Positions 9,445 to 49,219 of a stretch of DNA of 64,000 bases are shown here, in pieces. The translations under genes and the position numbers were made by a program. The notes below the pieces were generated by a model. It did not search any database. It saw nothing but the letters and a program-made list of their open reading frames with translations, and had not been told where the DNA came from. This DNA is from a virus. The stretch lies in IMG/VR virus record IMGVR_UViG_3300050821_003619, positions 1-64,000 of that record. One strand, given 5' to 3'. Position 1 is the first letter of the stretch. Each line of letters begins with the position of its first letter.

Positions 9445-11112
9445 CTACTGGTTAATTATCTTTACTTGCCACTGAGGAATCTTCTCTTGCGTGAACATTG
9501 TGCTAGAATTTGCTTTATCCGATGCAAGTTTCATTAAGTAGAAGTGTCGTGCCAATGGGTCAAGAGTCTTTGCATGCTCTTCAACCTCTTGTTCTCGTGG
9601 CTTTTTGCGGCCAGCTAACTGACCGTACAGTCCGTATCTAAATCCGTCATAGCAGTCGTCGCCTTTGGCATTGACCTTAAGTACGTCATCCATAAGGTCA
9701 GGATCACGCATAAGTGCTGGAATAGATCGGATGATATCTTTACAATTATCTAGAATTACCAATTCACCGTTCTTCAGCATGTTATACATCAACGCTGCTG
9801 AACCTATACGATCCATGGTAGCTCTAGTTACTGCTGGTAAACCTACTACTCTTAATTCTCTTGAATACTCATCTGCAGGGCTATGTGCTGTTACTTGCTT
9901 AGAAAACTTTTCGTGAGAAAAGTAAATAGCTTTAGGAACTACTTCCATACCGTTAGGAAGCTTGCACATCTGCTTTAGGATAGAAGCCCATTCTTTGTGG
10001 GTCTTTCCTCCTGTCAGAACCATCTCTTTGAAACAAACTGTCTTAAGTTTATAATCGCCGTTTACCAACTTCACCATTGCTTTGGTGAAGAAATAAGCTG
10101 CGTTATAGTGACCACCCATAGACCAGTCTTGTGATGCCCATACCGGCTGGTACTGTTGCCATATGATGGCGTCTGGGTCCTCTCTTAAATTGATTACATG
10201 GTAATCCTCAGAGAACACATCAAAATATTGACCCTCTACTACTCCATCCAAACCAAGCAAAAGCTTATCGCGCTTTGCTTTTGGCATGCTGTTAAGACGG
10301 GAAAGTATAGCCGGGTCGCGTGCTAGCAATTTTAAATTGTCAAGTACTGTAGAGCGTTGGTATGCGTAAGCTTTTGGATCGTAGATAAGTCTCCACTCAC
10401 CAGCTTCCAGCACCCACCATGCTCCATTTTCGTCTTTACGTGCTTCCTCTGGTCGCTGCCATGGCTCTTTCTGCACGAATACTGTTCTGTAGTATTCATA
10501 ATGTGGACCGAGAGGGTTGGTGCAACCAACAATACACGGAATGGGCATGTGCCCATGAGCATTAGGCAAACAGGATGCATTAACTGTATTACGAGAATAT
10601 AGCATCATCCATGCTTCTGGTGAGAACTGACCACATTCGTCAACCAAGATGCCGGGATAAGCTTGTCCTAAGTACTGTTCAATATCTCTCTCTTTATTGT
10701 TCTGGCAATGACCAAACACAACGCGAGAGCCGTTAAAAAAAGTTGCTACGTGGCTTGTAGGGTTATACGTGTAAAGCTCTGGAGGAACGAAAGCCTTAAA
10801 ATCGGCAATAGCTCCACTTTCTAATTCCTTAAACGTACGTCTCAAAACCAATATGTCGCATTTTTCCCATGCTAAACAGTAGTTAATAACCAAGTACATT
10901 AACCAACCGCTAGTTTTACCGGATCGAATACCACCAACAGATAGACATTGAGGAGCTACAGGTAAATGGTAAATAATTCCATCTACCGATGTAGGACGAA
11001 TAAGTTCTGTCTGTTTAGGTTGGAACTCAAAAATCTTATTTAGATTTAGGGTGCCATCAGCATTCAAATATGCCGGTCTCGCCTTATCCTCAGTTGGTAC
11101 TTTGCGGGGCAT
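9445..11112 (-). CDS. terL: Terminase large subunit
   Basis: Walker A GGIRSGKT, Walker B ILVDE, CTNP coupling motif, C-terminal nuclease DDCYDGFRY. Confidence 0.92.
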   Translation of the reverse strand: MPRKVPTEDKARPAYLNADGTLNLNKIFEFQPKQTELIRPTSVDGIIYHLPVAPQCLSVGGIRSGKTSGWLMYLVINYCLAWEKCDILVLRRTFKELESGAIADFKAFVPPELYTYNPTSHVATFFNGSRVVFGHCQNNKERDIEQYLGQAYPGILVDECGQFSPEAWMMLYSRNTVNASCLPNAHGHMPIPCIVGCTNPLGPHYEYYRTVFVQKEPWQRPEEARKDENGAWWVLEAGEWRLIYDPKAYAYQRSTVLDNLKLLARDPAILSRLNSMPKAKRDKLLLGLDGVVEGQYFDVFSEDYHVINLREDPDAIIWQQYQPVWASQDWSMGGHYNAAYFFTKAMVKLVNGDYKLKTVCFKEMVLTGGKTHKEWASILKQMCKLPNGMEVVPKAIYFSHEKFSKQVTAHSPADEYSRELRVVGLPAVTRATMDRIGSAALMYNMLKNGELVILDNCKDIIRSIPALMRDPDLMDDVLKVNAKGDDCYDGFRYGLYGQLAGRKKPREQEVEEHAKTLDPLARHFYLMKLASDKANSSTMFTQEKIPQWQVKIINQ

Positions 11113-12305: not shown

Positions 12306-12570
12306 GCTTCCTCTTTTTATTTCGTAATGCTTGAATCTCGTTAGGGTCCAATGCGGTATCGCCTGCCTCACTAGCAAAGTAGTAAGGGTTCAACAAAGGG
12401 TCAATTATCTCTTCCATTTGACAGTTGCCTGTCGAGCAGAATTCAAGACCACCAGACAGCGCTCGATGAGCCGACTTTTTGGTCAAGGCCCACGGCGCAT
12501 TTAGCGCGTTCGGACAACAAAAAAGGGTAGACCCTGTTGGGCCTACCCTCGTGTGTATAACTAACAATTT

Positions 12571-12645
12571 TGGTGGACAATGACGGCTACGCTCCGTCCT
12601 CCCTCGGGTGCAAGCCGAGAGTTTTCCTGAATAAACTAATCGCCC
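12571..12645 (-). tRNA. tRNA-Ala(UGC)
   Basis: Cloverleaf, loop CUUGCAC, G3:U70, CCA; atypical T-loop AGCGUAG. Confidence 0.85.
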
Positions 12646-12647
12646 AC

Positions 12648-13742
12648 TTAAAATGGTTCTGTGTAACGAAAGAATTTTATTAATCGTTCAAAGAAATTTT
12701 CTTTCTTACCATAAAGGAAATGAAACCATTTTTCAATACTTCTTTTATTGTGCTTAATCAAGGCTTTCGTGCCTTGTATCGCTGCATCGTCTCTTAATAA
12801 CAAGTTGATGCCTACTTCAGATATTTCTACCGCGTCATCGGCATCGGCTTTCCATGAATCTGGAGCCCAATATATCGCAGATGATACCACAGAAGGTACA
12901 CCGGCCAACACTCCGTCTGCCGTTACCATGTTGAAGGATTCCGTATAAGAAACCTGAATCAACAAATCCATGCTGCTTACCAGATGAATGAATTGATCCC
13001 ATGGCTGCCAGTTATGACGTACAAGGGTGAACCCCGGTATATTGTCGGTCATCTGGCCTATAGCTGGAGAAACTCTACCTTGGTCTCCTTCTCCACCGGA
13101 AGACATATGAAACTCTACAGGTACTTGAAGTTCTTTTTGTATAAGAACTGCAGCCGCTGTAGCAGTCATAAAGTTCTTCTCGGGACGTACTGCACCAAAT
13201 GCGCCGATCTTTATAGGACTAACACCGTCCCACGGCTCTTTTTGGCGCTGATATGTCAGCGGATAAAGATTAGGGAGAAGAACCGCTTCTCTCTCGTATG
13301 CTTTTTCAAACCACTCTACAAATCTTTCAGAGTTGCCACCAACTTTTAAGTTAGGATATTTCTCCGAAAGTTCTTGGTACTTTCTCAATAACTCTACACC
13401 TTCTGGGTCAGCTTGCAGAAACCCAACGTTTGAGTGAGAAAGTATAACAAATTCTATGTCTTTAAAATTTTTAACTAGAGACTTTAAATCATGAAGGCTA
13501 AGCCAAGGAGCAGATATAACTACGTGCGTGAGAGGCTTATCGTGGGTTTCGTTGTATTTATCAACGGCATGCACAATATCAACGTTGTGCCTTACAGGGA
13601 ACACGGTGACATCCACTCCGTATTCTCTTAGTACTTGCGCTGTGGTAAACCCTGCTACATTCAGTCCAACACAGCTAGTTCTTATCCATGCAGCAAAATC
13701 TTTAAATACCAGCGCTAATCTTACGTCTTCTGCCTTCTTCAT
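12648..13742 (-). CDS. Glycosyltransferase, GT-B fold (GT4-like)
   Basis: GAVRPEKN and SYTESFNMVTADG..GVPSV motifs. Confidence 0.75.
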   Translation of the reverse strand: MKKAEDVRLALVFKDFAAWIRTSCVGLNVAGFTTAQVLREYGVDVTVFPVRHNVDIVHAVDKYNETHDKPLTHVVISAPWLSLHDLKSLVKNFKDIEFVILSHSNVGFLQADPEGVELLRKYQELSEKYPNLKVGGNSERFVEWFEKAYEREAVLLPNLYPLTYQRQKEPWDGVSPIKIGAFGAVRPEKNFMTATAAAVLIQKELQVPVEFHMSSGGEGDQGRVSPAIGQMTDNIPGFTLVRHNWQPWDQFIHLVSSMDLLIQVSYTESFNMVTADGVLAGVPSVVSSAIYWAPDSWKADADDAVEISEVGINLLLRDDAAIQGTKALIKHNKRSIEKWFHFLYGKKENFFERLIKFFRYTEPF

Positions 13743-13857
13743 CTAATCCTTCTGGGGAAAGAGGGATTGCCGGGGTTCCTTTACGACGCCCAATCCCGGC
13801 GCGGACGTTTACAAATTGGTTGCGGCCTCCGGTAACGCTCCTAGGAGACCGCAAAAT

Positions 13858-13934
13858 TGGGTGCGGGAGCGAGAATCGAACTCGTCCATGTGATGCTTAT
13901 GAGACATCCGTAGCCACCAGACTACGTTCCCGCA
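13858..13934 (-). tRNA. tRNA-Met/Ile2(CAU)
   Basis: Loop CUCAUAA, T-loop UUCGAUU, CCA. Confidence 0.85.
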
Positions 13935-14187
13935 ATTTATACTCAATTATCCTGTGACAGTTAGCACACAATAGTATGCACTTCTTTAATTCCTCTAAAA
14001 TGCTTTCTCTACTATGTCTAAAAATTCCTGCACTAAGATTAAATCTTTTTGTGTCTGGGTTTACATGGTGAAAATCCATAACATACGATGGGAATTTATT
14101 GCCGCATCTGTTACATGGTTTATTTTTATATGTATCCAGCCACTCTCTTCGTTTCTTTATTGCCTTCTTAACTGTGCTATACGTGCT
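13897..14187 (-). CDS. HNH endonuclease; 3' end overlaps tRNA(CAU)
   Basis: PCNRCG...MDFHH...KCILLCANCHR. Confidence 0.8.
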   Translation of the reverse strand, partial: STYSTVKKAIKKRREWLDTYKNKPCNRCGNKFPSYVMDFHHVNPDTKRFNLSAGIFRHSRESILEELKKCILLCANCHRIIEYKLRERSLVATDVS

Positions 14188-14266
14188 CATCTTTTCTCTT
14201 TTCCGCAGAAAGATGAACAAGTGCGTCCGCAACCACCTGAGTTTTATCGTCTCAGGAACGTCAAAA

Positions 14267-14342
14267 TGGGGTGAGCAGTAGGATTCGAACCTACATAAGC
14301 CAATTTAGAAGATTGGTGCACGGTCCCTTATGCCATGCTCAC
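14267..14342 (-). tRNA. tRNA-Arg(UCU)
   Basis: Loop CUUCUAA, CCA. Confidence 0.9.
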
Positions 14343-14349
14343 GTAAAAT

Positions 14350-14427
14350 TGGTCGGCGCGGGAGGATTTGAACCTCCATATACTCGCGTCCAAGGCGAGG
14401 GGGTTAGCCAGATTACCCAACACACCG
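14350..14427 (-). tRNA. tRNA-Pro(UGG)
   Basis: Loop CUUGGAC, CCA. Confidence 0.9.
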
Positions 14428-14436
14428 AAAATTGTC

Positions 14437-14669
14437 TCATTAGGAACAGGCGAAAACAGAGCGGGAATCAACGTATTGACTACGCTGCTGTAGTTTCATC
14501 CGTGTATTCACCCTAAAGTATCGCCCGGAGGTGATTACTGTGAGTGACGGCTACAGGCTTCCCTAGCATTTTTAGACGTGCCTAGCGTTCCATACGGAGT
14601 TGACTGCCACCGAAGTGTCAGTGGTTTGCGTCATCAAGTATGAAGTATCTGTTTTCTACGCCATAATGA
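14437..14669 (-). ncRNA. Y-RNA-like RNA 1 (shared stem plus ~175-nt structured insert)
   Basis: 5' UGGCGUAGAAAACAGAUACUUC ... CUGUUUUCGCCUGUUCC 3'; near Ro60 gene. Confidence 0.7.
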
Positions 14670-14677
14670 AAATTTAT

Positions 14678-14812
14678 TAGATGCAGGAACAAGCGGTCAC
14701 AGAGATTTTAGCGCTCTGCCACTAAGCTACGGAGACCGAAGTCTCCGGTGGGAGTCGAACCCACGCCTCTTCATTAGCAGTGAAGTAACTGTGTCCTACG
14801 CCATGCAATCTA
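14678..14812 (-). ncRNA. yrlA: Y RNA 2, YrlA-type (shared stem plus permuted tRNA-like T/acceptor/D domain)
   Basis: Insert GUGGG-UUCGACU-CCCAC, CGGAGAC-UUCG-GUCUCCG, GCUU-AGUGGCA-GAGC; close to the TROVE gene. Confidence 0.85.
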
Positions 14813-14823
14813 AACTTAAAATT

Positions 14824-14895
14824 TGGTCGCCCCGCTGAGAGCAACCTCAGCCACCCTCCCCAATGGGAGTCGTGCCGCACTTACACCACAGAGCG
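14824..14895 (-). ncRNA. CCA-ended tRNA-like RNA with non-canonical anticodon and T loops
   Basis: Acceptor CGCUCUG/CGGGGCG-ACCA and D stem present; anticodon arm CUCCC-AUUG-GGGAG; T loop GUUGCU. Confidence 0.6.
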
Positions 14896-14903
14896 AACTC
14901 ATC

Positions 14904-14990
14904 GTGGGAACAAACGATTACAGAGATTATAAGCTCGTATTAGGAGCTTCTCTTGTTAATGGTAAGAAGTAACTGTAATCTACGCCACAC
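14904..14990 (-). ncRNA. Y-RNA-like RNA 3 (shared stem plus short hairpin insert)
   Basis: UGGCGUAGAUUACAGUUACUUC ... CUGUAAUCGUUUGUUCC; starts ~12 nt after the TROVE stop. Confidence 0.75.
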
Positions 14991-15002
14991 AAACTTTATA
15001 AC

Positions 15003-16319
15003 TTATTCGTTTTCGTAAGCCTGAATCCAATTTACTACAGATTCCGACCATCCGTCAAGGTGGCTCCATTTTCCGTATCCGATACCGTTCTGATAAGAAG
15101 CCACATTGATCACGTATCCTACACCGTTAGGTGTAGATACTGTCTGATGCGATTGCTCATCAGTAACGATGATGATACGGTCGTAACCACGGGCATCAGC
15201 TACTCTTTTCGCTGATTCCGTGTTGGTTGACCCGTGGCTTGTAGCGTTCTTAATTGCATCTCGAAGCGCAAAACCTCTACGGGCTGGAACCAAAACGGGA
15301 GAATTTGAAAACGAAAGAACTTCTACGTCTTCACAAATCTCACGAAGGAGAATAGCCAGAGCACAAGCCGCATCACTGCGGTCGATCTCACTCTTTGCCG
15401 AAACTGGGGTACCGTACATGCTACCAGAGTTATCTACAAGAAGAATCGTCTTGCCCTTTAGCTTAGGCATCTTCTCCAATGCCTTGAACATAGCCTGCTC
15501 TAATTCAGGCTCTAGGTCTGGGGCATACTTCGCCGCAGAAATGAATCTGAATGGCAGCACTCTGCTCACATCAATCTTTCTCAAGGCGCTCTTGATCAGC
15601 GTCTTGCTTACCCCAGACTGCTCCATATTGCGAAGGTTACGCAATAGAGCCAACGCTCCAAGCTTCTCTTCTTCGATCAGTCGCGTAAAGGTTTCACCCT
15701 TGTCAGCGCCTCCTGAGAGAGCAACTTCCCACGTATCTGGCGTCTTCAATTCGTTATTGACAACCTTCTTGAAAAGCTTTTCCTGTTTCTTATTCTCAGG
15801 CTTAGCGTGAGAAAGGAAAAGAACATCGCGCAGCTTTACTGCACCGTCACGGTTGTACTTAGCAAGTGCATACTCTTCGAACTTACCGAAGGCTCGCGCC
15901 AATCCACGCTTACTCTGCGCTGATAAAGGCTCCTTGCCGTCTTTCCAATAGATTGCCACGTACTCAGTCAACTCATCTGGGCGCTGAATTACGCGTTCCA
16001 GAAGTTCCGCTACGTACTGACGCTCAGTCACTTTTGGGTGACGGGCCAGTTCACGCGCTAACAATAGAGGTACGTGACGTAGCTTCATTTCTTCTCTCGC
16101 CTTAACAGCGATGTCAGCTACGGTTTTGCCGGGAAGCGAGTGCACCAGCGTCTTAATACGCTCTGCGATTGCCTGCCCGTCTTCATAAAATTGGTCTTCC
16201 CAAAGCATGCACGCCATTACTGAGCGCTCTAATTCTTTTGCTTTGGTGATTTTCTTTGCAACTGCACCTTCATGTGTGAAGATAGGTGCAGACTTTACTG
16301 CTCTGTTTAGGGTAGCCAT
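15003..16319 (-). CDS. rsr: Ro60/Rsr TROVE-domain RNA-binding protein with vWA domain
   Basis: QRPDEL, LAKYNR, LRDVLFLSH, TWEVALS, ALLRNLRN, RVLPFRF, MIDAS DNSGSM, IVTDEQ. Confidence 0.95.
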   Translation of the reverse strand: MATLNRAVKSAPIFTHEGAVAKKITKAKELERSVMACMLWEDQFYEDGQAIAERIKTLVHSLPGKTVADIAVKAREEMKLRHVPLLLARELARHPKVTERQYVAELLERVIQRPDELTEYVAIYWKDGKEPLSAQSKRGLARAFGKFEEYALAKYNRDGAVKLRDVLFLSHAKPENKKQEKLFKKVVNNELKTPDTWEVALSGGADKGETFTRLIEEEKLGALALLRNLRNMEQSGVSKTLIKSALRKIDVSRVLPFRFISAAKYAPDLEPELEQAMFKALEKMPKLKGKTILLVDNSGSMYGTPVSAKSEIDRSDAACALAILLREICEDVEVLSFSNSPVLVPARRGFALRDAIKNATSHGSTNTESAKRVADARGYDRIIIVTDEQSHQTVSTPNGVGYVINVASYQNGIGYGKWSHLDGWSESVVNWIQAYENE

Positions 16320-16363
16320 AAACACTCCTGAGTCAAATTTATACTTCTACTGCCGAACAAAAT

Positions 16364-16439
16364 TGGCATGAGATGCAGGATTCGAACCCGCACGATTCGT
16401 TTTGGAGACGAACATGCTGCCGTTAAACATCAATCTCAT
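16364..16439 (-). tRNA. tRNA-Trp(CCA)
   Basis: Loop CUCCAAA. Confidence 0.9.
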
Positions 16440-16442
16440 ATA

Positions 16443-16518
16443 TGGAGCGAAGCACGAGATTTGCACTCGTTCCGTTTGGTTGGAAGCCAAACATGCTGCT
16501 GTTAAACACCAGCCTCGC
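16443..16518 (-). tRNA. tRNA-Gly(UCC)
   Basis: Loop CUUCCAA. Confidence 0.9.
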
Positions 16519-16519
16519 G

Positions 16520-16593
16520 TGGAGCGAACTGAGAGAATCGCACTCTCGCCTAGTCGTTGGCAACGACCGGTTCTACTACTAAACTAAGCTCGC
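16520..16593 (-). tRNA. tRNA-Gly(GCC)
   Basis: Loop UUGCCAA. Confidence 0.88.
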
Positions 16594-16664
16594 TCAAGTA
16601 GCCGAAGGCGACACCCAACGACATCTGCGGGGAATTACAACGCTGAATCAGCTACTAAATAAAA

Positions 16665-16741
16665 TGGCGACCTGTATGGGATTCGAACCCATGATCTGTC
16701 CCGTGACAGGGGACTGGGGACAGCCACTCCCCTAACAAGCC
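16665..16741 (-). tRNA. tRNA-Asp(GUC)
   Basis: Loop CUGUCAC. Confidence 0.9.
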
Positions 16742-16742
16742 G

Positions 16743-16836
16743 TGGACGAGAGTGCGAGATTCGAACTCGCGGCCCCTTTCATCAAGGAAGCGGCGGTTTT
16801 CAAGACCGTTGCATTAATCCGCTCTGCCAACTCTCG
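16743..16836 (-). tRNA. tRNA-Ser(UGA)
   Basis: Loop CUUGAAA, long variable arm. Confidence 0.9.
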
Positions 16837-16845
16837 GTTTCAAAC

Positions 16846-16938
16846 TGGATGAGAGTAAGGGATTCGAACCCTTGGACCCCATTGCTGGGCATCACATGTT
16901 TAGCAAACATGCTCGATAAACCACTCTGACAACTCTCA
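16846..16938 (-). tRNA. tRNA-Ser(GCU)
   Basis: Loop UUGCUAA, long variable arm. Confidence 0.9.
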
Positions 16939-17037
16939 ATAAATTTTGTGAGGCTGAGAGGTAACGAATGCTCTCAATTAAGTTTTAACGTTCATGCTTA
17001 CGCAATTTACGGCGCTACCGTACAACACCTCTAAACT

Positions 17038-17113
17038 TGGTCACTCATGCGGAAGTCGAATCCGCGTCACTTCCTTGAGAGGGAAGTATCCTAAGCCACT
17101 AGACGAATAAGTG
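17038..17113 (-). tRNA. tRNA-Glu(CUC)
   Basis: Loop CUCUCAA. Confidence 0.88.
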
Positions 17114-17169
17114 ATAGATGTGGATTTCGCAGTGCTGCCCACATCGGCCTGCACTCGGCCTTTGCAAAA

Positions 17170-17244
17170 TGGAGGTCCCACAGGGAATTGCACCCTGATC
17201 TAAAAGTTCGTAGCTTTTCATCCTATCTGTTGAACGATAGAACC
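17170..17244 (-). tRNA. tRNA-Arg(ACG)
   Basis: Loop CUACGAA. Confidence 0.88.
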
Positions 17245-17391
17245 TCATAAAATCGGTGCCGCAGAAACTTATTGCTTTTCTTTGTACTTCAGCATTGAGC
17301 AACATCGGTTACCCTGCGGCTAAAATTTGGGTGGGTTTTTTACGGTCTTCTCAGAATCCAATACCCACCCCATCTTCAAGATTCATAAATT

Positions 17392-17467
17392 TGGTGTCTC
17401 GTGCGGGATTCAAACCCGCGTCAAAAGCTTGAAAGGCTTCCATCCTAGATCACTAGACGAACAAGAC
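17392..17467 (-). tRNA. tRNA-Glu(UUC)
   Basis: Loop CUUUCAA. Confidence 0.88.
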
Positions 17468-17468
17468 A

Positions 17469-17543
17469 TGGCTCCTACCGCTGGATTCGAACCAGCACCC
17501 TACGCATTAACAGTGCGCTATCCTGCCGTTAGACCAGATAGGA
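17469..17543 (-). tRNA. tRNA-Asn(GUU)
   Basis: Loop CUGUUAA. Confidence 0.88.
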
Positions 17544-17558
17544 ACATTACAATTAAAT

Positions 17559-17646
17559 TGGTGCACGCTGATGGATTCGAACCACCAATAGCTCTTAGAG
17601 CCGGGAGGGTTACAGCCTCCTGCAATAGCCGTTATGCGAAACGTGC
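17559..17646 (-). tRNA. tRNA-Tyr(GUA)
   Basis: Loop CUGUAAC, long variable arm. Confidence 0.88.
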
Positions 17647-17653
17647 ATTTAAA

Positions 17654-17728
17654 TGGTGACCACTGGAGCGCTCGCATCTCCGTCCACGGGGTTTCAATCC
17701 GTTGCTATGCTATCTCAGCTAAGAGGCC
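17654..17728 (-). tRNA. tRNA-Phe(GAA), atypical T arm
   Basis: Loop UUGAAAC; enlarged T loop. Confidence 0.7.
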
Positions 17729-17742
17729 ATAAAATTTATTCA

Positions 17743-17801
17743 CGGGAACAAACGTGTACGGTGTATTTTCATCCAAAGAAGTAACCGTACACAACACCAC
17801 G
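17743..17801 (-). ncRNA. Y-RNA-like RNA 4 (minimal: shared stem with ~15-nt loop)
   Basis: UGGUGUUGUGUACGGUUACUUC ... CCGUACACGUUUGUUCC with compensatory changes. Confidence 0.65.
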
Positions 17802-17807
17802 CAAATA

Positions 17808-17881
17808 TGGAAGCCCCGCAAGGATTTGCACCTTGGTTAGAAAGGTCAAAGCTTTCCGTCCTGCTCTTGAACGACAGGGCT
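17808..17881 (-). tRNA. tRNA-Gln(UUG)
   Basis: Loop CUUUGAC. Confidence 0.88.
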
Positions 17882-17970
17882 ATAAAAATTTGAGGCAGGA
17901 TTTACATACGTTGCAGTTCCATTATCCAACGTAAGACCTAAATACCGAATGGATGCGGTTGCCTCAAAAC

Positions 17971-18044
17971 TGGTAGGCAAGGAGTGAGTTGCACACTCAT
18001 TTCACTCTAATCAGGAGTGCTGTCTGCTGTTGACGTACTCGCCT
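17971..18044 (-). tRNA. tRNA-Ile(GAU)
   Basis: Loop CUGAUUA (U37 unusual). Confidence 0.8.
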
Positions 18045-18045
18045 A

Positions 18046-18131
18046 TGGTCCGAAAGAAGAGAGTCGAACTCTTATGCATTTACTGCGGCAGTTTTTGAGA
18101 CTGCTGTGTCTGCCTGTTCCACCACTCTCGG
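18046..18131 (-). tRNA. tRNA-Leu(CAA)
   Basis: Loop CUCAAAA, variable arm. Confidence 0.88.
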
Positions 18132-18140
18132 ATTTAAAAT

Positions 18141-18225
18141 TGGTCTCGAAGATGGGACTCGCACCCATACGCCTGACGGCAGAAGTTTTTAAGACTTCCG
18201 TGTCTGCTAATTCCACCACGACGAG
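18141..18225 (-). tRNA. tRNA-Leu(UAA)
   Basis: Loop CUUAAAA, variable arm. Confidence 0.88.
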
Positions 18226-18227
18226 AT

Positions 18228-18303
18228 TGGCTGGCCGTCAAGGACTTGCACCTCGACCATTCGGGTCAGAGCCGAACGTTCTGCTATTAAAAACTAACAG
18301 CCA
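18228..18303 (-). tRNA. tRNA-Gln(CUG)
   Basis: Loop CUCUGAC. Confidence 0.88.
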
Positions 18304-18312
18304 ATAAAAATT

Positions 18313-18389
18313 TGGAGTACGTTGCAGGATTCGAACCTGCGCCTAGACGGGTTGCAGCCGTCCGCGTTTAGCCTCTTCGCCAAACGTAC
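18313..18389 (-). tRNA. tRNA-Cys(GCA)
   Basis: Loop CUGCAAC. Confidence 0.9.
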
Positions 18390-18390
18390 A

Positions 18391-18466
18391 TGGAGGGCAC
18401 GCGAGAAATCGAATCTCTTTCACGCGGGGTCACAACCCGGTGGCTACACCAGTTGCTACGCGCCCT
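18391..18466 (-). tRNA. tRNA-His(GUG)
   Basis: Loop UUGUGAC. Confidence 0.82.
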
Positions 18467-18471
18467 AAAAT

Positions 18472-18550
18472 TGGTACACCGGGTTGGATTCGCACCAACG
18501 GTAATCCTTCTTTGTAAGAGAAGGGGCTTCGTCTCCTTGCCCACCAGTGT
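18472..18550 (-). tRNA. tRNA-Val(UAC)
   Basis: Loop CUUACAA. Confidence 0.85.
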
Positions 18551-18602
18551 ATGGTGCAATCCTATAGATTGCACAACCGTATTTCTACGGGGAGTCGTAA
18601 AT

Positions 18603-18680
18603 TGGAGCCTAAGACTGGGAATCGCACCCAGTACAACCTCTTTACGAGAGAGGTATTCTAGCATCTTAAATTACTCAGGC
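18603..18680 (-). tRNA. tRNA-Thr(CGU)
   Basis: Loop CUCGUAA. Confidence 0.88.
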
Positions 18681-18690
18681 ATAAAACTCT

Positions 18691-18791
18691 ATTTAGGGAA
18701 CAAGCGAATACAGGAAAGGCACCAGCCCTTGCTACGGAATCGAACCGCTCGCTCTATATGCAAGAAGTACCTGTTTTCTACGCCACTAAAT
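18691..18791 (-). ncRNA. Y-RNA-like RNA 5 (shared stem plus T-arm-containing insert)
   Basis: UGGCGUAGAAAACAGGUACUUC ... GCGG-UUCGAUU-CCGU ... CUGUAUUCGCUUGUUCC. Confidence 0.72.
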
Positions 18792-18795
18792 AAAC

Positions 18796-18870
18796 TGGAG
18801 CCACTGGTAGGAGTTAAACCCACACACGCCAAGGTACAAGCTTGGTGCACTGTCATTATGCTACAGTGGC
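18796..18870 (-). tRNA. tRNA-Thr(UGU)
   Basis: Loop CUUGUAC. Confidence 0.85.
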
Positions 18871-18871
18871 A

Positions 18872-18945
18872 TGGAGCCCAAGGATGGAATCAAACCATCG
18901 TTGCTCCCTTACCAAGGGAGAGTTCTATCACTGAACTACAAAGGC
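18872..18945 (-). tRNA. tRNA-Thr(GGU)
   Basis: Loop UUGGUAA. Confidence 0.88.
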
Positions 18946-18955
18946 AATAAAAATA

Positions 18956-19273
18956 ATACTAACTCTGTAAGCAGGATTCTGTCAATGGAATATTTTCCAC
19001 CGGACAATCATTCGTCTTAGCTTTCAACCCGATGGCTCCCCGAGCAGGATCACTGCCATCCTATTTGAAATTGCTGCCCCTAGAGATTGCCCGTTTCACT
19101 CCCACTCAAGGGATTCGTCACTGTTGCTCTTATCGTAGCCTCGCGGCTCCCGCAGCTTCCACGGTAGGGTGCTCTTTGCAGTCCTGACTTTCCTCACCTT
19201 AAGATGAAGCGCTCCGCAAGGTATTAACCACACAGTGCTTGATCCGATAAGGCGCGATTGTCTGAGTTAGTAT
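18956..19273 (-). ncRNA. rnpB: RNase P RNA
   Basis: Conserved GAGGAAAGUCAGGAC and ACAGAAUCCUGCUUAC (P4), GUGAAACGGGCAAUC, AAUGAUUGU; P1 AUACUAACUC/GAGUUAGUAU. Confidence 0.92.
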
Positions 19274-19373
19274 AAAATTGGTATGGAAGATACTCTAGGA
19301 GTAGTCACCTTTGACTTTCAGCCTGCTCGCTACATCCACGTCACTTTTGCAGGATATCGGAACATCTTAAAAT

Positions 19374-19460
19374 TGGTGCGCCTAGAGGGACTTGCACCCC
19401 CACGGCTGTTAACCACTGGAGTCTAAATCCAGCGCGGCTGCTAAATTACGCCATAGACGC
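19374..19460 (-). tRNA. tRNA-Leu(UAG)
   Basis: Loop UUUAGAC, variable arm. Confidence 0.88.
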
Positions 19461-19730
19461 ATTTAAAATTTTAGAGCACAGGCGAGGCTGAGGGACTAGG
19501 CCAGTCAGCCTCGGGTGCTTTTCTTCGAAAGAGTGCGTCTTACACAATATGTTGCGCCAGCTCGAAATACGAAGATAAACGTTGGGCGTATACCTTGTTG
19601 CGATACCATCTACTTCTAGACTTAGCCCAATCTGAATCCCGGCCCTCAACCAAAAAGGAGTAAAGGGAGAGCCGGGAGGACGCGAATGCGTCTACAATGT
19701 GATGTACGCCTTATTTGAGGGTACAGTATT

Positions 19731-19759
19731 ACTATACCATAACTAAGTGAATTTGTCAA
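19731..19759 (-). promoter_or_regulatory. Sigma70-type promoter of the RNA island
   Basis: TTGACA-N17-TATAGT with extended TG. Confidence 0.75.
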
Positions 19760-19892
19760 GTAAAAAATGCAGAGTCAACGCAAAAAATAAAGTTTAAATA
19801 TGGAATGACATTTACGTATCATACTGATTTAAAACGAGTTATATCAAAAATCTAAAACCGTATCTTATAGTAAATACACGGGTTATATCAAC

Positions 19893-19921
19893 TTGACTTT
19901 CGAGGTAAGTCGTGCGATACT
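19893..19921 (+). promoter_or_regulatory. Divergent sigma70-type promoter of the DNA metabolism operon
   Basis: TTGACT-N17-GATACT with extended TG in an AT-rich spacer. Confidence 0.55.
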
Positions 19922-20007
19922 AGAATCGTTTCCCCCCGGTAATACTATATACTACATATGGTTCTATAAGAATCAATCACTTACTTGTTAAAGTATAGGG
20001 GCAGTAA

Positions 20008-20313
20008 GTGGTTATTGTCAATAGGTATTTGCTAAGCATTGAAAATAAACAACTTATGAAGCTATCTACACGCACTCCAGATTCAATTTCCAAGAAAAGA
20101 CAGGAGCTTAGAAGGCAAATAGCCCTCTGGCAAGATCGAATAGAAGCCATAAAGCTTTCTCTTTCAATAACTTCAGAAGAGAAGGCAGAAAAACTGAAAC
20201 AAGCCTACACGGAACTCAAAGCTTTAAATGCTTCAATGAACGAGACTTTTGTCGGTCGGCACCGATCCATCAACTTCAGCAAGACCAGAAAGCTCTACCC
20301 CGGCGTTTGGTAA
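20008..20313 (+). CDS. Hypothetical protein
   Basis: ORF track; helical. Confidence 0.45.
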   Translation: MVIVNRYLLSIENKQLMKLSTRTPDSISKKRQELRRQIALWQDRIEAIKLSLSITSEEKAEKLKQAYTELKALNASMNETFVGRHRSINFSKTRKLYPGVW

Positions 20314-48859: not shown

Positions 48860-49219
48860 TACGCACGTATGAGGTAATCGCAAAGCCTATCGGACACGGG
48901 TTCGACTCCCGTCGCCTCCACCAAGCTACTCACGATGAATACCGGCTGACCCCAGCGTCTAGCGCGGAATCACGGCTAGGCCCGAGACGAATGCATCGTT
49001 ATCGGGAAAGTCGAGGATAATTCTCGTCTGGGTGAGTAGCTTAATGGGGGCGTCACGGCTTCGACGGTGGGAACTGAGGGATTTACTGACGTGCCGTTAT
49101 CGTACGCCGTTCGTTATACGGAGTGCAAAAACACAAATGCTAAGACTAACAAGTCTCGCAAGGCCTATGGCATGTTCTTCGGTGGAAACACTGTTGGACA
49201 GCTTTCTGTAGCTGCCTAA
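48860..49219 (+). ncRNA. ssrA: Circularly permuted two-piece tmRNA
   Basis: Acceptor piece ...GGACACGGGUUCGACUCCCGUCGCCUCCACCA (ends 48923) precedes coding piece GGGGGCG (49046); G3:U70; tag AKTNKSRKAYGMFFGGNTVGQLSVAA* at 49139-49219. Confidence 0.88.

Follow-up and report, generated by a model that had tools for sequence, protein, structure and literature searches.

A reduced class A RNase P RNA encoded in the tRNA array of a 109-kb phage genome

The 318 nt at positions 18956–19273 of a complete phage genome are a bacterial class A RNase P RNA, identified by covariance-model score and by the presence of every core feature, and the gene is a clean insertion between the tRNA-Leu(UAG) and tRNA-Thr(GGU) genes of a phage tRNA array. 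RNase P RNA is the ribozyme that removes the leader from newly made tRNAs, and it is universal among cells. The window analysed here comprises the first 64 kb of the IMG/VR record IMGVR_UViG_3300050821_003619 (109,250 bp), a genome closed by a 25-bp terminal repeat, with a CheckV completeness of 100% and with proteins that include PolA, UvsX, a helicase, a primase and tail fibres. A sequence-only reading of the window had proposed an RNase P RNA at this place, and a cmsearch with the Rfam model bears this out: RF00010 (RNaseP_bact_a) matches positions 18952–19227 of the minus strand with 126.8 bits (E = 1.8e-38), against a gathering cut-off of 100 bits, and this is the only match (n = 1) in the whole 109,250-bp record.

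The Rfam alignment of the RNA spans 276 nt and marks numerous pairs of P1 and P2 as non-standard, and its 5′ end is wrong. The segments AUACUAACUC (19273–19264) and GAGUUAGUAU (18965–18956) form a P1 of 10/10 Watson–Crick pairs that is recovered by an unconstrained MFE fold, and when the upstream 145 nt were shuffled 20,000 times, a 10-bp match arose only 46 times. This perfect P1 upholds the size and ends given in the sequence-only reading (18956–19273, 318 nt) over the 276 nt of Rfam. The 5′ strand of P2 begins one base inside P1 and, judged from its pairing, the hairpin labelled P18 by Rfam is in fact the 3′ strand of P2. CR-IV (AAGACGAAU) lies at its expected place, although it is recognisable only once P2 is re-assigned, and since a gap of only 9 nt separates P15 from P2, P18 is absent. 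The perfect P1 and P2, with the 3′ strand of P2 abutting CR-IV, indicate that the 318-nt limits are correct, and the revised fold is independently supported because P2 covaries in ten related phage RNAs. Rfam models only the tip of P3. The extra hairpin (19001–18984) occupies the place that P19 has in RNAs of type B and in some of type A, and counterparts of it are present in two related phage RNAs, L209 and L195.

Core helices missing on formal alignment would, by its own terms, have refuted the sequence-only reading; the RNA nevertheless retains P1–P12 and P15–P17, together with both pseudoknots (P4, P6), all of CR-I to CR-V and the GGU of L15. Both strands of P4, which it had recognised, were found as GAGGAAAGUCAGG (19195–19183) and ACAGAAUCCUGCUUA (18982–18968). 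They pair as AAG-U-CAGG with CCUG-CUU in 7/7 pairs (3+4), keep the bulged U and carry a two-sided compensatory change from the consensus CCGG/CCGG to CAGG/CCUG. P1 (10 bp), P2 (7), P4 (3+4), P5 (4), P6 (4), P7 (5), P15 (4) and P16 (6) are free of mismatches, with none in the ~47 base pairs checked; the P6 pseudoknot joins GCUC in L17 (3′ strand) to GAGC at 19171–19174. The specificity domain of ~92 nt is not collapsed to a stub as in RNAs of the miniature type: P7–P12 are retained, as are CR-II (ACAGUGA) and CR-III (GUGAAA), both in their expected places. Absent are P13, P14 and P18, the first two accounting for 43 model positions deleted in the RF00010 alignment, and P12 is cut to a 4-bp stub. 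In class A RNase P RNAs the L15 GGU binds the 3′-CCA of the tRNA, and L14–P8 and L18–P8 contacts brace the molecule; because the loss of P13, P14 and P18 removes these two contacts, the RNA alone may be weak. Among cellular RNase P RNAs, those of CPR bacteria being one example, losing these helices is ‘not uncommon’ (PMC8172020). Coordinates of the features are collected in Table 1.

Table 1. Features of the RNase P RNA and its surroundings, listed 5′ to 3′ along the minus strand (positions in the window)
Feature	Position	Strand	Evidence and remarks
Two sigma-70-like promoters (candidates), 20021–19992 and 19759–19731	19731..20021	-	11/12 matches each; consensus scan only
tRNA-Leu(UAG), upstream neighbour	19374..19460	-	tRNA gene call; CCA encoded; 100 nt from RNA start
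Spacer, 100 nt	19274..19373	-	Fold z 0.06; absent from relative L085; came with insertion
RNase P RNA, reduced class A, 318 nt	18956..19273	-	RF00010 126.8 bits; ends from perfect P1; fold z-score -2.65
P1 5′ strand AUACUAACUC	19264..19273	-	Pairs with 18956–18965, 10/10
P2 5′ strand GACAAUC	19256..19262	-	7/7 pairs with GAUUGUC 19003–19009; covaries in 10 related phage RNAs
P3, irregular hairpin, ~60 nt	19196..19255	-	-20.8 kcal/mol, z -2.8
CR-I / P4 5′ strand GAGGAAAGUCAGG, with bulged U	19183..19195	-	RF00010 alignment and pairing check
Specificity domain: P7, P8, P9 (GCGA loop), P10/11, CR-II, 4-bp P12, CR-III	19078..19169	-	Rfam alignment and helix checks
P15-P16-P17, internal loop AAAUAG/GGGU (CCA-binding GGU)	19022..19070	-	Rfam alignment and pairing check
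CR-IV AAGACGAAU	19010..19018	-	Fits consensus AGAUGAAU; P2 3′ strand immediately after
Extra hairpin GGUGGAA-AAUA-UUCCAUU	18984..19001	-	Between P2 3′ strand and CR-V, at P19 position
CR-V / P4 3′ strand ACAGAAUCCUGCUUA	18968..18982	-	RF00010 alignment and pairing check
tRNA-Thr(GGU), 10 nt downstream of RNA end	18872..18945	-	tRNA gene call
Terminator-like hairpin, 12 bp and T run, past last array tRNA	12523..12550	-	Consensus scan only

The RNase P RNA lies on the same strand (minus) as 26 tRNA genes at 12571–19460, so that its placement inside a phage tRNA transcription unit, as first proposed, stands. The tight tRNA spacing noted at the same time can now be given in numbers, with 1 nt at seven junctions (CCA-N-tRNA) and 2–3 nt at two more. 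The two promoters and the terminator-like hairpin, which are consensus matches only, fit a single tRNA/ribozyme transcription unit. The hexamer TATACT at 19275–19270 was considered as a promoter of the RNase P RNA's own and rejected, as a transcript begun from it would have its first base within P1. All 26 tRNA genes encode the 3′-CCA, which matches a class A enzyme that reads CCA via L15, and position -1 of the phage tRNAs is mostly U. In the spacer at 19274–19373 there is no fold above shuffles, no Rfam match and no promoter; its end (...ACCA followed by AUUUU) resembles a tRNA 3′ end and spacer. An open reading frame of 67 aa with a TTG start (19446–19649), upstream of tRNA-Leu, is unconvincing as a gene or as a basic cofactor.

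Several further features of the array and of the genome deserve mention in their own right. The T loop begins with UGC (G at position 55) and not UUC in nine of the 26 tRNAs (16443–19460, minus strand), and with AGC in one, and the D loops of the tRNAs with UGC or AGC T loops are without GG. The UGC T loop predates the ribozyme, since the relative L085 has the same T loop in its tRNA-Leu(UAG); as L085 has it without a ribozyme, remodelled tRNA elbows are a weak link as the reason for the ribozyme's presence. Three Rfam tRNA matches on the minus strand have no ARAGORN call (17657–17728, 36.8 bits; 18606–18680, 42.4 bits; 14746–14800, 30.2 bits) and may be odd tRNAs or tRNA-like RNAs in gaps of the array, and a small HNH endonuclease reading frame of 111 aa (13897–14232, minus strand) lies between array tRNA genes. 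Elsewhere in the window a circularly permuted, two-piece tmRNA is found at 48863–49219 on the plus strand (RF04321, 92.8 bits); it was reported by the generic permuted model only and by no alpha-, beta- or cyano-specific model, and it thus gives no clue to the host.

Comparison with related phages marks the gene as a gain. Relatives were defined as the five IMG/VR contigs with a PolA 60–68% identical to that of this phage, and a search of their whole records with RF00010 (E ≤ 0.01) matched none of the five, a 94%-complete genome among them. In the closest, L085 (PolA 68% identical), the gap between tRNA-Leu(UAG) and tRNA-Thr(GGU) is 7 nt, and the two closest contigs share the array order tRNA-Leu(UAG), 7 nt, tRNA-Thr(GGU), tRNA-Thr(UGU). 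On alignment the flanking tRNAs are conserved and ~420 nt, corresponding to spacer and ribozyme, are present only in the window, with AUUUU-type spacer sequence at both boundaries. The empty site in the sister phages allows the gain to be dated, and because sister phages with similar tRNA arrays manage without the ribozyme, it is dispensable for phages of this type. The nearest cultured phages, Tunturi_3/4 (PolA 41–43% identical), infect Tunturiibacter (Acidobacteriota), and RF00010 matched nothing in either.

Relatives of the inserted RNA were sought among phages and bacteria. No match to it was found by blastn in 50,697 GenBank phages, and 301 genomes of Acidobacteriota, the host phylum of Tunturi_3/4, gave only chance-level matches of 23–37 nt; the searches made found no homologue more than about 78% identical over 80 nt, and the best local identity to any RNase P RNA compared was 65% over 180 nt, to a huge-phage RNA without the P4 variant. 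An exact pattern for the general 5′ strand of P4 retrieved 48 contigs from IMG/VR, 46 of which were searched with RF00010; 45 matched, 40 of them above the cut-off, and multi-tRNA arrays surround the match in all but three of the 24 larger contigs checked. Some of these matches, with 334 bits, sit where short contigs or proviruses end and probably represent host flank; others lie deep within complete phage genomes of 169–463 kb. Patterns specific for CAGG/CCUG found 12 further viral contigs and two metagenome contigs. The statement that RNase P RNA is uncommon in phages therefore needs qualifying, IMG/VR having yielded 40 contigs above the cut-off and 12 with the P4 variant. In GTDB genomes the 5′ P4-variant pattern identified three true RNase P RNAs (two from Bdellovibrionota, one from Omnitrophota) and the 3′ pattern at least five RNAs of Bacteroidales or Lentimicrobiaceae and at least one mini RNA; among the GTDB matches listed, none resembles the 318-nt RNA beyond the core and so points to a donor.

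The 318-nt RNA shares with the CAGG/CCUG phage RNAs the P4 variant itself, a P2 3′ strand that abuts CR-IV and the setting of a phage tRNA array, a likeness that may reflect either common descent or convergence on one P4 pair. These RNAs are 153–302 nt long, each with a perfect P1, and score 66–107 bits with Rfam, most of them below the cut-off. P2 was tested in ten of them; in every one it covaries, with its 3′ strand directly beside a CR-IV-like motif. Those with the same P4 variant include L209, L195, L137, L138, L162, L153, L169, L193, L177 and L181; as in the 318-nt RNA, P18 is missing in most of the group, and the genes lie in or beside phage tRNA arrays. Most of the group, however, are of only 153–266 nt with a collapsed specificity domain, and many have their own promoter, whereas the 318-nt RNA is the longest, keeps CR-II/CR-III, P8 and P9, is without its own promoter and has low sequence identity to the others outside the core. 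L209 is the closest in build, being without P18 and having the extra hairpin. Its RNA of 302 nt lies in a 98%-complete phage genome of 101.7 kb without a homologue of this phage's PolA, and its sequence differs yet pairs in P1, P2, P5, P6, P7, P9, P15, P16 and the extra hairpin; it has no canonical CR-II/CR-III, both of which are present in the 318-nt RNA.

Some members of this wider collection are unusual. The smallest RNase P-like RNAs among the loci examined are of 153–156 nt (L181:7655–7807, L208:9785–9940 and L211:1548–1703), with 98–99 nt between the P4 strands and a TTGACA/TACAAT-type promoter just upstream. L177, a viral contig of 243 kb, carries a permuted alphaproteobacterial-type tmRNA at 10556–10850 (RF01849, 152.8 bits) and, 1.6 kb from it, a 162-nt RNase P RNA with its own promoter (12435–12596). 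In a viral RNase P-like RNA, L158:7821–8010, the sequence complementary to the P2 3′ strand is found downstream of CR-V instead of upstream of P3, an arrangement which suggests that the end helices follow each other in rotated (permuted) order. Finally L313, a contig from a GTDB bacterial or archaeal genome, has a mini RNase P-like RNA with a CAGG/CCUG P4 and only 151 nt between the P4 strands, and may represent a prophage or a phage contig binned with the genome.

From the conserved anatomy, the best reading is that this RNA would mature the tRNAs of the phage, most likely as an active ribozyme that uses host RnpA. We consider it quite probable that it is a functional, reduced class A phage RNase P RNA, transcribed with the array and cleaving phage pre-tRNAs together with host RnpA. 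The ribozyme would be transcribed with the 26-tRNA array from promoters near 19.7–20.0 kb, and its 3′ end would be freed, with a short tail, by an RNase P cut at the 5′ end of tRNA-Thr(GGU). It is predicted to fold into a complete catalytic domain (P1–P5, P15–P17, the P4 and P6 pseudoknots, CR-I, CR-IV and CR-V) and a core specificity domain (P7–P12, CR-II and CR-III) without the peripheral struts P13, P14 and P18. The GGU of its L15 would bind the 3′-CCA encoded by every phage tRNA and, with host RnpA, the ribozyme would cut the 5′ leaders of the densely packed phage pre-tRNAs and probably the tmRNA precursor as well. The likely benefit would be extra or host-independent processing capacity in infection.

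Host RnpA is invoked because the phage encodes none: the absence of rnpA from the window, which had been remarked upon before, extends to the whole 109-kb genome, a six-frame search with PF00825 at E ≤ 1 finding no match. As partner, host RnpA is an economical and reasonable inference. An active ribozyme partnered by an unrecognised phage protein, or acting without any protein, would account for a genome without rnpA, and many reading frames near the array belong to no Pfam family. Ro60, suggested at the outset as a possible partner, would be a special case, and a Ro60 homologue (TROVE, 61.8 bits, and a vWA domain) is indeed encoded at 15003–16325 on the minus strand, inside the tRNA unit; beside it a YrlA (Y RNA-like) match at 14680–14792 on the same strand reaches 30.4 bits (E = 0.0013), below the cut-off. 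Nothing ties this protein to the RNA, however. Ro60 binds Y RNA stems and misfolded RNA ends, and we know of no case in which it binds RNase P RNA. In the structure of the T. maritima holoenzyme the RnpA-binding regions are reportedly CR-IV, CR-V and the P3/P4 side, and these regions are conserved here in their bacterial form, which argues for RnpA and makes a partner other than RnpA, Ro60 included, unlikely.

Even less likely, in our view, is that the RNA serves as a decoy or sponge that soaks up host RnpA or competes with host RNase P RNA, and so halts host tRNA maturation or distracts a defence. A phage without rnpA that co-expressed the RNA at tRNA level, as the consensus promoters suggest, could produce such an effect, and a reduced RNA may be a poor enzyme. 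A decoy, however, would have no need for the bulged U of P4, an intact CR-I and CR-V, the P6 pseudoknot or a CCA-binding GGU matched to CCA-encoding tRNAs, and the 26 tRNAs of the phage themselves need RNase P. We give somewhat less weight again to the RNA being a recently captured, decaying passenger without function. It is found in just one of six related phages, has lost three peripheral helices and has no close homologues to show selection; against this, the ~47 checked base pairs contain 0 mismatches, the change in P4 is compensatory, the lost helices are those absent from cellular reduced RNase P RNAs (PMC8172020), and unrelated phages keep this architecture too. Host contamination or a chimeric assembly, a fair concern for the many IMG/VR matches of ~334 bits that resemble host flank at short-contig ends or in proviruses, is scarcely credible for an RNA embedded 19 kb deep in a circularly closed phage genome of 109 kb, flanked by two phage tRNAs in the order seen in a relative and by AU-rich spacers typical of the array.

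Beyond an active ribozyme assisted by host RnpA, the shorter phage RNAs invite a wider proposal, which we hold possible but rather doubtful. The 318-nt RNA would be one end of a natural deletion series (318 to 153 nt) within a lineage that circulates among unrelated phages as a tRNA-array cassette, self-releasing, assisted by host RnpA and independent of host RNase P RNA, for the processing of packed or odd-shaped tRNAs. Were this so, phages would harbour minimal RNase P ribozymes that still function, a reservoir as yet unexplored.

With the RNAs of bacterial class A (RF00010), such as E. coli M1 RNA (rnpB) and T. maritima P RNA, which cut the 5′ leaders of pre-tRNAs by themselves at high salt or with RnpA, the phage RNA shares P1–P12, P15–P17, the P4 and P6 pseudoknots, CR-I to CR-V and the L15 GGU, and it passes the cut-off of their model. 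Class A RNAs are about 350–400 nt long, whereas the phage RNA has 318 nt; it differs from them in the absence of P13, P14 and P18, the 4-bp P12, the extra hairpin between P2 and CR-V and the CAGG/CCUG P4, and also in being encoded within a phage tRNA array, in a genome without rnpA. Minimal RNase P RNAs have also been engineered (Min 1, Micro P) by removing peripheral helices while keeping the conserved core, and they remain active, with more salt or protein needed; these are laboratory constructs, whereas the phage RNA is natural. A cellular parallel is provided by the RNase P RNAs of CPR/Patescibacteria, which are class-A-derived and often without P13, P14 and P18, and for which, as for the phage RNA, the cmsearch prediction needed manual refolding (PMC8172020). 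Many of them are without P16/P17 and the CCA-binding motif, both of which the phage RNA keeps, and each is the sole, essential RNase P RNA of its cell. Organelles also encode RNase P RNAs, for example jakobid mitochondria, which have a reduced tmRNA as well (PMC3590771); they resemble the phage in that tRNAs, a tmRNA and a reduced RNase P RNA of bacterial type occur together in a small genome. The organelle RNAs are vertically inherited endosymbiont remnants, in contrast to the recent insertion into a virus described here.

In the literature searched, which left most subscription journals out of its reach, no phage-encoded RNase P RNA is reported, nor is any of the IMG/VR phage contigs with an RNase P RNA found here, and the phage-borne ribozyme group with a CAGG/CCUG P4 is undescribed in that literature. 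Routine annotation misses such RNAs because Rfam mis-places P1, P2 and P18 and because most of the shorter ones fall below the cut-off. What is unusual about the present RNA is its carrier and its context. It keeps every element on which catalysis and the reading of the CCA and the tRNA elbow are known to depend, and it has shed the stabilising struts; its presence suggests that phages which carry large sets of tRNAs invest in maturing them as well as in supplying them. Together with its shorter phage relatives, it offers a natural series in which to ask how small the RNA of an RNase P can be.
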